64,000 bases of DNA from contig OZ242036.1 of the NCBI GenBank assembly GCA_965205075.1, forward strand, positions 5,822,599-5,886,598. Reading direction: 5' to 3'. The notes under the pieces were generated by a model that was not told the DNA's origin, searched no databases, and saw nothing but the letters and a program-made list of their open reading frames with translations. This DNA is from Candidatus Poribacteria bacterium. GTDB taxonomy: Bacteria > Poribacteria > WGA-4E > PCPOR2b. Within the stretch, counting starts at the first letter, position 1; the number at the start of each line of letters is the position of its first letter. Shown here in pieces: positions 39,628-41,304 of this stretch. Made by a program: the position numbers and the translations under genes.

Positions 39628-41304
39628 TTATACCCCCCGTTTATCTCCCCAAATATCAACGTGAACCCGCGGTGAATAGCGATAACCGTGTTCCTTGCAG
39701 ATGTCCACAAGCCACTCCTGTTTGGGTGCCAATTCTTCGGGGGTTATGCCTTGGGGCATCAGCACAATTGTTTCTGCGGGGATCGGGATTTCTGCCTGTA
39801 GTGCTTGAATCTCTTCGATATCCGCAGGCTGATCAACGACAAACTTAACTTGGCACTCGTACCGATCAAGGAATAGCCGGATAACATCGGGGCGGATACG
39901 TCCTCGCTCATGTCTACCAAAGTAGCGGTTGTCACTGGGCGGATTGGAGTTTCGCAGTTTGGGGCTCATGGAGATGAGGTGCGCCTCCACAGGCGCAAAA
40001 AGGGTCGCATTCGTTTCGATGGTGATGTGATGACCGCGTTGATCCAGTTCTCGGCAGAGCTCGGTCAACTCCTTAACTTGGATGAACGGTTCACCACCTG
40101 TGATGACGACATGCTTGCACTCGAATTTCGTAATCGCTTCAACCGCTTCCGTGAAAGTGATGTCTTTATTTTCTGGATTCCAAGATGTAAAAGGGGTGTC
40201 GCAGTTGTGAGAGAGTAACCCTTCACTGACATAAGAGCCGGACGTGGTCTTAAGGGAAATCACTTCTTCGGCGGCAGTGTGTTCAATGCTGGTAATATGT
40301 TGGCGTGCTTGGCTAGAAATGCCCCAGAAATTCCATTTGTTGAGAGATTGTGGTTGACATAATGAATAAAACCTTAGAATCTCAGGGGTCGTTCCACCCA
40401 ATCTAACGCCACGGGATTCATTCGTTGGGCGAAACCCGAGTTTGGCTGCAAAGTCAATCGCCTTTTGTTTGAATTCCCCCTCCTTCTGAGCAAAGCGAAT
40501 TGTACCGGTATAACTCCCTTCCGCATCAAAAAAGCCTGCCAACCAGCCACGATAGTAACTTTGATCTTGTGGATGTCCTTTCAACCACCGCTCAAAGGAT
40601 TCCGCTTTTTGCGATGTTGTAAGCCATAACGCTTCCATGACACTGTAGCCTTTGAAACCGCAGTGTTGGTGTGGGGCAAAATGTAGCCGGTAACCCGCAC
40701 GTTTGGCAAACTGTTGAAATTGTTCCAATAATGATAGGTTCGATAAAACGAGTCGAAATCGGCGATAATTTTTATCTCCTTTTCGCAAACTCCAAAAACA
40801 GCCATCACCCTCCGCCATTCCACACAGCCAACCCCTTTCATACGCCTCCACGTCCAATGGTGTCTCTTCGGGCGGGAGTATACAACGAACCGCACCACCC
40901 ACACAGAGTTTTTTCGCTTTTCTCCAGCCAACGTGAATCTTAGAGCTATCTTGAGTTCGAGTTGTTACTTGATATAATAGGTGATCTGGCGAGCAGGCAA
41001 ACTGTATTCCATCTTCCGTTAAGAAACGGACCATAGAGCTTCGGCGGGCTGTGGCTTCAACGACCTGAGTTGGCTGTAGTTGTAAGTGCCCACCTTTATC
41101 TTGGCGCAATGCACCAACGACCCAATCGCCAGGGTTGAGATTCTCAATGGGCGTCCATCTAAGATCCGCACTTAAAACGCGTGTTCCTATCGCAGAGCAC
41201 CACGTGCACCTTAGATTACAGTAACTAGTCCGAAAGAAAACAGAGGGGACGCCAACTAGTTTGCCTTCGCCCTGAATTGTGTGAAAAAATTCGCTGTATT
41301 TCAT
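39628..41304 (-). CDS. queE: 7-carboxy-7-deazaguanine synthase QueE (radical SAM) precursor containing an intein
   Basis: Start set at [14 protein letters not shown] (ATG 41304, 2 nt after the upstream stop). N-extein ends ...[13 protein letters not shown] and C-extein starts CDTPFTSW...[12 protein letters not shown]. The joined exteins (35+191 aa) match Bacillus-type QueE end to end. Confidence 0.85.
   Translation of the reverse strand: [558 protein letters not shown]
40204..41199 (-). mobile_element. Intein (332 aa) with LAGLIDADG homing-endonuclease domain
   Basis: It begins CSAIGTRVL (Cys1) and has block-B SPDH. The two dodecapeptide motifs are [12 protein letters not shown] and [12 protein letters not shown]. 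It ends LLSHN and is followed by the +1 Cys (codon 40201-40203). Confidence 0.85.

Follow-up and report, generated by a model that had tools for sequence, protein, structure and literature searches.

An interrupted gene of the QueE family

The window, which is the whole 64-kb stretch of Candidatus Poribacteria DNA under analysis, carries on the minus strand a gene encoding a 558-aa precursor, in which the sequence of a radical-SAM protein of the QueE family is split by a long in-frame insert (Table 1). The longest ORF found at the locus (39628..41400, minus strand) spans 590 aa and starts with GTG. The ATG at 41304 is the start common to all homologues, and sets the precursor at 558 aa; the protein begins with MKYSEFF and the stop lies at 39628. 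A plus-strand reading of the same interval, for which the first-pass annotation gave no strand, was ruled out, as its translation is full of stops. The insert measures exactly 332 aa, or 996 nt, is free of stops, and directly follows W35, ahead of the third cysteine of the CX3CX2C motif. All the peptides quoted in the first-pass annotation, including the N-terminal junction at residues 29-44 and the C-terminal junction at residues 363-372, are present in the precursor where they were said to be.

Table 1. Features of the interrupted queE-family gene, in window coordinates
Feature	Position	Strand	Support
Complete precursor gene: 558-aa QueE-family radical-SAM protein, intein and stop codon	39628..41304	-	
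N-extein, residues 1-35, ending with W35; holds the QGEG motif and C29, C33 (first two Cys of CX3CX2C)	41200..41304	-	Aligned to QueE 6NHL, 5TGS
Intein, 332 aa, precursor residues 36-367; Cys1 first, His-Asn last	40204..41199	-	996-nt indel relative to empty allele L001; AlphaFold and Foldseek; invariant C36, N367, C368
N-terminal HINT (splicing) subdomain, intein residues 1-115; block A (Cys1) and block B	40855..41199	-	Beta-strands of the model; H108; weak Pfam Hint match
Block B S-P-D-H, precursor residues 105-108	40981-40992	-	
LAGLIDADG homing-endonuclease domain, intein residues 116-294	40318..40854	-	Pfam matches above cut-off; I-DmoI-like fold; dN/dS; conserved D167, D260
LAGLIDADG motif 1, precursor residues 159-170	40795-40830	-	
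LAGLIDADG motif 2, precursor residues 254-265	40510-40545	-	
C-terminal HINT subdomain, intein residues 295-332; blocks F and G, ending with His366-Asn367	40204..40317	-	Model; invariant N367
C-extein, residues 368-558, starting with Cys+1	39631..40203	-	Pfam Radical_SAM match
GGEP SAM motif of the C-extein	within 40087-40101	-	
WGDKRGV, precursor C-terminus, residues 552-558		-	

Excision of the insert in silico, proposed in the first-pass annotation, does yield a 226-aa protein in which the CX3CX2C motif is restored as CNLRCTWC. The spliced protein also features TGGEP, and matches Pfam Radical_SAM with E = 7e-13. Its alignment to the E. coli QueE (6NHL) runs through the junction with no gap, and that to the B. 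subtilis enzyme (5TGS/5TH5) is end-to-end. When a profile of the spliced family was compared to solved proteins, three QueE were retrieved (E = 1.7e-20, 1.8e-18 and 1.2e-12), followed at 3e-4 by other radical-SAM proteins. The five best NCBIfam matches are similarly all QueE models. The spliced protein falls under the cut-off of every NCBIfam QueE equivalog (TIGR04322, 86.9 vs 200 bits; TIGR04349, 85.4 vs 300 bits; TIGR03365, 80.6 vs 206 bits), and because of this the name QueE is to be taken as a family-level call, denoting a distinct subgroup of the QueE family. The 226-aa product is most likely a 7-carboxy-7-deazaguanine synthase. A crude motif scan of the 64-kb window found no signatures of queC, queD, queF or tgt. 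The orthologue P0129, which is 66% identical, adjoins QueC, PTPS (QueD), GTP cyclohydrolase I and a TGT-family gene.

A protein identical to the precursor exists in NCBI/ENA. The 90%-identity cluster of the precursor includes a 558-aa protein entered in public records as '4Fe-4S cluster-binding domain-containing protein', and a distant relative is listed as 'hypothetical protein'. Since these genes go unrecognised, the queuosine/7-deazaguanine capability can be miscalled in Poribacteria and in other metagenome-assembled genomes.

The insert as an intein

The length of the spliced protein is that of about 100 Poribacteria orthologues, and almost all of the best 120 extein homologues are exactly 226 aa long. 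Alignment to a syntenic allele lacking the insert (L001) leaves a single clean gap of 996 nt at the insertion point. The gene has the same neighbours in this allele and in L002, L003, L005 and L006. The homogeneous length of the homologues and the existence of an intein-less syntenic allele argue that the insertion is not a chance feature of the locus.

The hallmarks that had been listed on first inspection (Cys1, a block B SPDH, two LAGLIDADG motifs, a terminal His-Asn and a +1 Cys) are all found in the insert. The residues expected in a class-1 intein are readable as the nucleophile C36, the pair H366-N367, C368, and the block B S105-P-D-H108. C36, N367 and C368 are invariant among 72-82 homologues interrupted at the same site, and H108 is kept in at least 90% of them. 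Acidic catalytic residues are present in both LAGLIDADG motifs, D260 being invariant in the same set and D167 conserved in at least 90% of its members.

Profile searches for the splicing domain gave a mixed answer. The intein of the window stays under the curated cut-offs of both Pfam Hint (20.4 vs 29.7 bits, the weak match spanning precursor residues 42-123) and TIGR01445 (13.4 vs 24.5 bits). By contrast, the whole insert aligns full-length to the intein part of the NF038136 model (E = 3e-11), and PF14890 Intein_splicing is matched by 40 of 72 same-site homologues. The endonuclease domain scores above the cut-offs when the insert alone is searched, both with LAGLIDADG_3 (31.6 vs 22.5 bits) and LAGLIDADG_1 (25.0 vs 23.1 bits). 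The Hint domain anticipated in the first-pass annotation is thus missed by the curated thresholds on this very sequence, and is recovered through NF038136, the homologues and the structural model described below.

A PDB search made with the sequence of the insert gave marginal LAGLIDADG matches, the best to intron endonucleases (E = 0.2-0.7), and a comparison of folds was therefore needed. The AlphaFold2 model of the insert (pLDDT 95.4, pTM 0.91) consists of a HINT domain and a LAGLIDADG domain, HINT beta-strands being placed on both sides of the latter. The top 16 Foldseek matches in the PDB are all intein-endonucleases (E = 6e-15 to 2e-8), and the best include the TliVMA, PI-PfuI and PI-SceI inteins. 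The endonuclease domain of the model has an I-DmoI-like fold, with a TM of about 0.7. The proposal that a LAGLIDADG intein interrupts a QueE-family gene directly before the third cysteine of CX3CX2C is borne out by the splice product, the empty allele, the fold and the conserved residues, and this core reading is supported. Neither of two outcomes named in the first-pass annotation as refuting it, a gapped alignment across the junction and a lack of Hint evidence, came about.

Alleles in Poribacteria

The intein was found in the genomes of eleven Poribacteria species, at 83-93% identity; at least 80 species of the phylum host an uninterrupted 226-aa gene. An exact-match DNA search of GTDB representative genomes gave no copy of the window, and its placement here follows protein similarity. 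Intein-bearing alleles all fall in one extein subclade, where they are interleaved with seven empty alleles. The reading frame is intact in 12 out of 12 intein-bearing genomes. Both LAGLIDADG motifs, with their acidic residues, are matched in 10 of the 12 alleles. One of the remaining alleles, L016, has lost both motifs, which read EGTG and DAGG. In the other, L012, the search pattern of the second motif gave no match. Mini-inteins are located at the identical site in P0025 and P0087. The hypothesis that they descend from the intein of the window was rejected: the P0087 mini-intein has no BLAST match to the latter, and is nearer to the distant CFVPETPVLMAD lineage (35-37% identity).

The dN/dS ratio is about 0.05 for the exteins (0.03-0.07 in intein-bearing alleles). 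It amounts to 0.12-0.16 in the intein, and to 0.08-0.10 in its endonuclease domain. Judged by these ratios, the insert is under purifying selection. The dS values of intein and extein are about equal, and their trees agree in part; both observations can be explained by prolonged vertical inheritance just as well as by homing that still goes on.

Residues +3 to +5 of the C-extein track occupancy of the site. DTPFT is found in 22 of 23 full-intein alleles, and empty alleles feature DSAYT inside the intein subclade and DTPYT outside. This signature might reflect resistance to the endonuclease, but could also result from shared ancestry or from a co-conversion tract. As far as can be read from the sequences, the set of alleles (empty, intact, with mutated endonuclease, with mini-intein) matches a homing cycle. 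Together with the site signature, these alleles make a compact system in which the homing cycle may be followed in uncultured, sponge-associated bacteria.

A related element is carried by the phage-like contig of P0129, where a 69%-identical intein is hosted in QueE and the neighbours are queC, queD, folE, a TGT-family gene, DnaB and SSB. No relative of this phage-like QueE intein was found in IMG/VR, and no QueE intein in isolated phage genomes. In the latter, one radical-SAM-like protein hosts a 24%-identical intein, and terminase inteins match over the N-terminal part only.

Proposed splicing and mobility

The best overall explanation, which we hold to be highly probable, is that the Candidatus Poribacteria queE-family gene hosts a class-1 (Cys1 / His-Asn / Cys+1) intein of the large, LAGLIDADG type, able to splice and, now or until recently, to home. 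The splicing steps are deduced from conserved residues, and mobility from population patterns. Translation would produce the 558-aa precursor, and an N-S acyl shift by Cys36, the intein Cys1, would occur at the W35-C36 bond. The resulting thioester would be attacked by Cys368 (+1), cyclisation of Asn367 would free the intein, and a final S-N shift would create the W35-C368 bond, restoring CNLRCTWC in the 226-aa enzyme. With the cluster-binding loop interrupted by the intein, splicing is almost certainly needed for an active enzyme. The LAGLIDADG domain in the centre is plausibly a homing endonuclease that is active, or was until recently, and may copy the element into empty alleles; its dN/dS of 0.08-0.10 and the signature at +3 to +5 speak indirectly for site-specific cleavage. 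The element would be primarily selfish, and would splice constitutively in a reducing cytoplasm.

The first-pass annotation had noted that the +1 nucleophile doubles as third cluster ligand, and this holds, as Cys368 starts the C-extein and becomes the third Cys of CX3CX2C once splicing has taken place. The corollary that the enzyme cannot bind its cluster until spliced goes too far on the argument given. A CX3CX2C motif, C29-x3-C33-x2-C36, is retained in the unspliced precursor, because the intein Cys1 takes the position of the third Cys.

The cysteines at the junction raise the question of conditional splicing. Cys1 is paired with a Cys at -3 (C33-T-W-C36), and oxidation could trap the precursor via C33(-3)-x-x-C36(1). 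For the intein of P. abyssi MoaA, reviews report a native disulfide between Cys-3 and Cys1, which prevents the first step of splicing for as long as it is not reduced (PMC3922620, PMC10663303). By analogy, redox-gated splicing is plausible also for the intein of the window. It is a different matter whether the intein is an adaptive switch, in which redox or Fe-S availability gates splicing via C29/C33/C36/C368, through a C33-C36 or C36-C368 disulfide or through ligation of iron or a cluster by Cys1, and the oxygen-labile enzyme is matured when conditions permit. The CXXC pair formed by Cys-3 and Cys1, the CX3CX2C motif retained in the precursor, and the MoaA precedent speak for such a switch, and the intein's lengthy stay under purifying selection could agree with a benefit for which it is kept. 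However, the same arrangement of cysteines occurs in all 87 same-site radical-SAM inteins, and is not evidence of adaptation, because it is dictated by the host motif. Moreover, most Poribacteria species manage without the intein. A selfish homing cycle leaves just the traces seen here, namely a patchy distribution, a mutated endonuclease and mini-inteins. An adaptive role looks accordingly rather doubtful, and oxidative trapping is better regarded, on the MoaA analogy, as a built-in by-product than as a demonstrated adaptation.

It is very improbable that the insert is a decayed intein unable to splice, and the gene a queE pseudogene or one encoding a protein of other role. The failure to reach curated intein HMM thresholds would agree with decay, and so would the residues found in place of the Asp and His that many inteins have in block F, under the block definitions as we take them. 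On the other side, none of the residues on which class-1 splicing depends is missing, and they are invariant among homologues; exteins of intein-bearing alleles are under strong purifying selection, the intein is under purifying selection too, and no frame is broken in any of the intein-bearing genomes. Introns too encode LAGLIDADG endonucleases, and intron enzymes were the best sequence-only PDB matches, but a group I/II intron with an endonuclease ORF, a free-standing LAGLIDADG gene inserted into queE, or an artefact of assembly, can be practically dismissed, because the insert is in frame, stop-free and bounded by Cys1 and HN/C (the slash marking the splice junction), HINT beta-strands flank the endonuclease in a high-confidence model matching solved inteins, an Rfam scan of 39000-42000 detected no intron and no other RNA family, and the identical arrangement recurs in more than 11 independent genome assemblies.

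The same site in other radical-SAM families, and known systems

The first-pass annotation knew of no described intein at this site of QueE. This agrees with the literature insofar as no paper on a QueE intein was found, and searches for inteins together with radical SAM, deazaguanine/queuosine, CX3CX2C or 4Fe-4S gave nothing relevant; radical SAM and MoaA both go unmentioned in the body text of Novikova et al. 2016. The site, however, is occupied elsewhere. Among the 137 closest relatives whose N-terminal junction could be read, 87 occupy the CX3CX2/C position in other radical-SAM families. The insertion site is not unique to QueE, and is already known in other radical-SAM families. Usage of the same cluster-ligand position by related inteins across many such families adds a second example of motif targeting, beside the clustering of inteins in P-loop/ATPase sequences. 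The same-site set also provides many candidates for natural splicing gated by redox or Fe-S, extending the single MoaA precedent.

A bolder reading can be formulated, which we consider speculative and rather unlikely as a whole. There would exist a large clade of inteins specialised for the radical-SAM cluster loop, with the QueE intein as one branch, spread among non-orthologous families, always inserted at CX3CX2/C, and provided in every member with a Cys-3/Cys1/Cys+1 switch; the Poribacteria endonuclease would be still active and confronted with resistant DSAYT sites, and phages that modify their DNA with 7-deazaguanines would act as vectors. The families named for this putative clade are QueE of several types, B12-binding proteins, SPASM maturases, SPL/Rv2578c and viperin-like proteins. 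No description of an intein clade of this sort was found in the literature.

Among the closest known arrangements, and one of those at the same site, is that of the NCBI-curated NF038136, the intein-containing Rv2578c family radical SAM protein, whose LAGLIDADG intein is likewise large and is inserted at the very same point (CX3CX2/C...HN/C). The host differs, being a SplB/Rv2578c-like radical-SAM protein and not QueE. P0261 is a true NF038136 member (882 bits, cut-off 700), and reads YRGCSHACSY/C...HN/CFARNSH. The window protein scores 56.4 vs 700 bits, and hence is not a member; its intein part alone aligns. Over whole-protein alignments, intein identity is 22% to P0261 and 21% to P0286.

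The TliVMA and PhoVMA inteins (7QSS, 7QST, 7QSU), PI-PfuI (1DQ3), PI-SceI (1VDE) and PI-TkoII (2CW7) have the same HINT domain split by a LAGLIDADG endonuclease. These solved intein-endonucleases share 10-15% sequence identity with the intein of the window, are 361-537 residues long against 332 aa, and reside in ATPase, RNR and polymerase hosts rather than in a QueE-family protein. The more compact 332-aa intein presumably does without the additional regions for DNA recognition that PI-SceI and PI-PfuI have.

The SufB intein of M. tuberculosis is likewise found within a protein of Fe-S metabolism, but SufB serves as a scaffold for cluster assembly and does not belong to the radical-SAM enzymes, and we take its insertion not to be at a cluster-ligand Cys. 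Splicing of this intein responds to oxidative and nitrosative stress, according to the title of a paper cited in PMC4760082 and PMC7765530. The intein of P. abyssi MoaA, known here through reviews of Callahan et al. 2011, resembles that of the window in having a radical-SAM, oxygen-labile host, and in the presence of Cys-3 and Cys1; the likeness concerns the CXXC spacing of C33/C36 as reviews describe it. Host and organism are different, and redox control is, by the same accounts, shown by experiment in MoaA, whereas it is putative here. The QueE intein is a new example of an already known type of element.

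The queE gene and its splice product

The region hosts a single long ORF, encoding 590 aa if counted from a GTG codon. All homologues share the start MKYSEFF, corresponding to the ATG at 41304, and the product is accordingly 558 aa long. This ATG is found two bases past the stop of the upstream gene, which encodes a 202-aa WGR-domain protein; the WGR-queE pair is conserved across the Poribacteria loci examined, WGR being undetected in two of them. A plus-strand reading of the interval was rejected, as the translation is full of stops. All the peptides quoted in the first-pass annotation are found in the minus-strand translation, and removal of the insert in silico yields the QueE-like protein of about 226 aa announced there, exactly 226 aa in length. 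Third-position GC is 0.43 in the intein versus 0.53 in the exteins (overall GC of the window, 0.488), a difference that fits an origin that is foreign or less adapted in codon use.

Coordinates of the features discussed (minus strand of the window unless a locus is named)
Feature	Coordinates	Strand	Remarks
Long ORF	39628-41400	-	counted from GTG
Insert (intein)	40204-41199	-	residues 36-367, 332 aa
C-extein residues +3 to +5	about 40189-40197	-	occupancy-linked signature
WGR-domain gene	41307-41915	-	ends two bases ahead of queE start codon
ORF immediately downstream of queE	39060-39503	-	147 aa, without Pfam match
Toxin C-terminus remnant	39542-39586	-	15 aa
Region of the QueE-site mini-intein, locus L005	3001-4107
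QueE gene with intein, locus L098	10001-11671

A database search with the spliced protein gave relatives of which the best 120 are nearly all exactly 226 aa long; they are 65-90% identical to it, and those bearing a name are Candidatus Poribacteria QueE. With E. coli QueE (6NHL) the spliced protein aligns gap-free where the exteins join, and with B. subtilis QueE (5TGS/5TH5) it aligns end to end, C-terminal WG.KRGV included. The 226-aa family profile matches three solved QueE proteins (E = 1.7e-20, 1.8e-18 and 1.2e-12); for other radical-SAM enzymes the best E is 3e-4. All NCBIfam QueE equivalog models match below cut-off (e.g. 86.9 bits vs 200). An orthologue 66% identical (P0129), located on a phage-like contig, adjoins genes for QueC, QueD (PTPS), FolE and a TGT-family protein; no queC, queD, queF or tgt signatures were detected in the 64-kb window by a crude motif scan. 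Because of the sub-cut-off scores and of the queuosine-gene context of P0129, the protein is denominated here as QueE-family, and is most likely a CDG synthase outside the curated equivalogs.

Intein nature of the insert

The insert had been described as a LAGLIDADG intein. Of the models proposed to verify this, LAGLIDADG_3 and LAGLIDADG_1 are the only Pfam entries passing thresholds, while Pfam Hint and the intein model TIGR01445 match the window sequence below threshold. The call is nonetheless sustained by alignment to a curated intein, database relatives, conserved residues and the fold model. Over its full length the insert can be aligned with the intein segment of NF038136, the NCBIfam family of intein-containing Rv2578c radical SAM proteins (E = 3e-11). 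Searched exhaustively, a set of 1.84 billion representative proteins yielded 1526 relatives at E <= 1e-3, 326 of them at E <= 1e-10; most align over all 332 residues, and both the length of the host protein and the place of the match within it vary. Relatives inserted at the same site match Pfam Intein_splicing in 40 cases out of 72, and LAGLIDADG_3 in 60 out of 72. In these, C36 (Cys1), N367, C368 (+1) and D260 are invariant, and H108 (block B) and D167 (first LAGLIDADG motif) are kept in at least 90%. The AlphaFold2 model of the insert (68 sequences; pLDDT 95.4, pTM 0.91) is rich in beta structure at its ends and alpha/beta in its centre. In the PDB it is best matched by the TliVMA and PhoVMA inteins, PI-PfuI, PI-SceI and PI-TkoII (E = 6e-15 to 2e-8), and the centre superposes on I-DmoI (TM about 0.7). 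No Rfam family, and thus no group I or II intron, was matched in the region.

Empty and occupied alleles in Poribacteria

The interruption of queE, also claimed at first pass, is confirmed by the 226-aa relatives and by an intein-less syntenic allele. The latter (L001) and an intein-bearing locus (L002) share the gene neighbourhood of the window, in the order GatB, RlmN, APH, glyoxalase, WGR, QueE, amidohydrolase. Aligned to the window DNA, L001 exhibits one clean 996-nt gap, located after ...TGG and before TGC.

The 147-aa ORF downstream of queE is 88% identical to the ORF following a Colicin_E5-domain ORF in another locus (L006 4722-5494), and only a remnant of the toxin C-terminus is left in the window. 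The islet has the look of an orphaned immunity gene accompanied by what is left of a toxin. It is missing from L001. Colicin E5 cleaves queuosine-family tRNAs, and the position of such an islet beside queE is curious.

The intein is present in 11 GTDB species-representative Poribacteria genomes (83-93% identity); among loci matched by extein, the best 80 of 148 are all uninterrupted. Neighbour-joining on the exteins places all 12 alleles bearing the intein in one subclade, where 7 empty ones are interspersed among them. The intein tree agrees only in part with the extein tree: the window intein groups with L007 and L017, the extein with L008, L009 and L011. The mismatch, in trees drawn without support values, is suggestive of transfer. 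The dN/dS ratio is about 0.05 for exteins, 0.12-0.16 for the intein, and 0.08-0.10 for the endonuclease domain of alleles with intact catalytic residues. Since dS is about equal in intein and extein, and dN/dS is low, the intein has long resided at the site under constraint.

Both LAGLIDADG motifs, acidic residues included, were matched in 10 of 12 alleles; the second motif of L012 is outside the search pattern. The L016 endonuclease (P0124; OZ244042.1) is predicted to be dead, because the acidic residue is lost in both motifs, which read EGTG and DAGG (WLCGVVEGTGCF, WLGGFFDAGGSY). All splicing residues are retained, and pairs including L016 feature a higher endonuclease-domain dN/dS (0.15-0.19). 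Other Poribacteria host mini-inteins of 142-153 aa at the same QueE site (P0025, P0087, P0114 and locus L005), and the one in P0025 keeps a LAGLIDADG-like remnant (YYLGYLMGALKGG). These mini-inteins are of another lineage within the family: they lie nearer the distant CFVPETPVLMAD inteins than the one in the window, which points to two or more invasions of the site.

Whether the site is occupied is mirrored in C-extein residues +3 to +5 (loci L001, L007-L023). Full-intein alleles read DTPFT in 22 of 23 cases (context CDTPFTSW). Empty alleles read DSAYT (CDSAYTSW) within the invaded subclade, with a cluster of nucleotide changes directly after the insertion point, and DTPYT (CDTPYTSW) elsewhere. 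Endonuclease-resistant targets or co-conversion tracts would look like this; shared ancestry may also account for the pattern. A single empty allele reads DTPFT; it may have lost its intein precisely and recently, or may be a target open to invasion.

Related inteins at the same site

QueE proteins of other types are interrupted at this site too, by inteins 31-38% identical to that of the window; where a source is named, it is a soil Gemmatimonadota, a Thermoplasmatota archaeon or a Cx14CxxC-type QueE. Among the closest representatives (P0154-P0300), CX3CX2 directly precedes Cys1 in 87 of 137 with a covered N-junction; a further 14 have a CX2^C context (caret, insertion point), several in a '...VSxGCxNC^' motif. 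Cys is at +1 in all 83 with a readable C-junction. The lineage of the QueE intein thus favours this position. Same-site hosts are diverse radical-SAM proteins, i.e. B12-binding, SPASM maturases, SPL-like, viperin-like and DUF5131, the last Pfam family being matched by six members of the scanned set. P0261, a true NF038136 member (882 bits), carries its intein at YRGCSHACSY^C, the same site as in QueE. In the literature searched 'intein' was never paired with QueE, nor were inteins in the radical-SAM motif discussed, in line with the earlier statement that none is known to have been described at the QueE site; these hosts indicate, however, that the insertion site is already known in databases, where it is curated.

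In two QueE-like proteins (P0192, P0209), reading '...C(S/N)L(A/Q)CSW^SPEEHQ(K/R)VL...LHN^CD(S/T)P', the predicted intein starts with Ser. This may reflect a Ser1 variant, in which the surrogate third Cys is lost, or a mapped boundary that is shifted. A phage-like contig (L098; Logan SRR13587048_9175) carries a QueE interrupted at the same site by a 69%-identical intein. Other genes on the contig specify a DnaB-like helicase, SSB and a DNA methyltransferase, along with numerous small ORFs; queC, queD, folE and TGT genes also form a cluster there, as is typical of DNA modification by 7-deazaguanine. No structural phage genes were seen in the 21 kb of L098 covered. This element may act as a vector of the intein.

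The intein goes unrecognised in public annotation. The 90%-identity clusters hold 226-aa and 558-aa members together, and a 558-aa member of the cluster of the window protein is named '4Fe-4S cluster-binding domain-containing protein'; P0147 is named 'hypothetical protein', and records MYE90443.1 and HLE48188.1, intein-containing QueE, bear one or the other name. The QueE intein is real and its first interpretation correct; the radical-SAM-wide clade and the occupancy-linked signature are most worth following.

Splicing and the cluster motif

The intein interrupts the loop bearing the three cluster ligands, and the full set of canonical class-1 splicing residues is present and conserved. Splicing would involve an N-S shift at W35-C36, trans-thioesterification by C368, cyclisation of Asn367 and an S-N shift, and enzyme activity would be expected only afterwards. 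The +1 nucleophile, C368, is indeed the third cluster ligand, as had been noticed. The accompanying claim, that the precursor cannot bind the cluster, does not follow from sequence alone: the precursor retains CX3CX2C (C29-x3-C33-x2-C36), because Cys1 substitutes for the third Cys. If the precursor bound the cluster, ligation of Cys1 would itself block the initial N-S shift.

Inteins in catalytic motifs, with a catalytic residue as +1 nucleophile, are the rule. MoaA is, to our knowledge, the one radical-SAM intein studied experimentally. In the P. abyssi MoaA intein, a Cys-3:Cys1 disulfide is reported to gate splicing (PMC3922620, PMC10663303). An adaptive regulatory role of conditional splicing in QueE seems rather unlikely; a redox-sensitive precursor is plausible by analogy, as the C33/C36 CXXC pair has, in Cys spacing, the same geometry as the MoaA pair.
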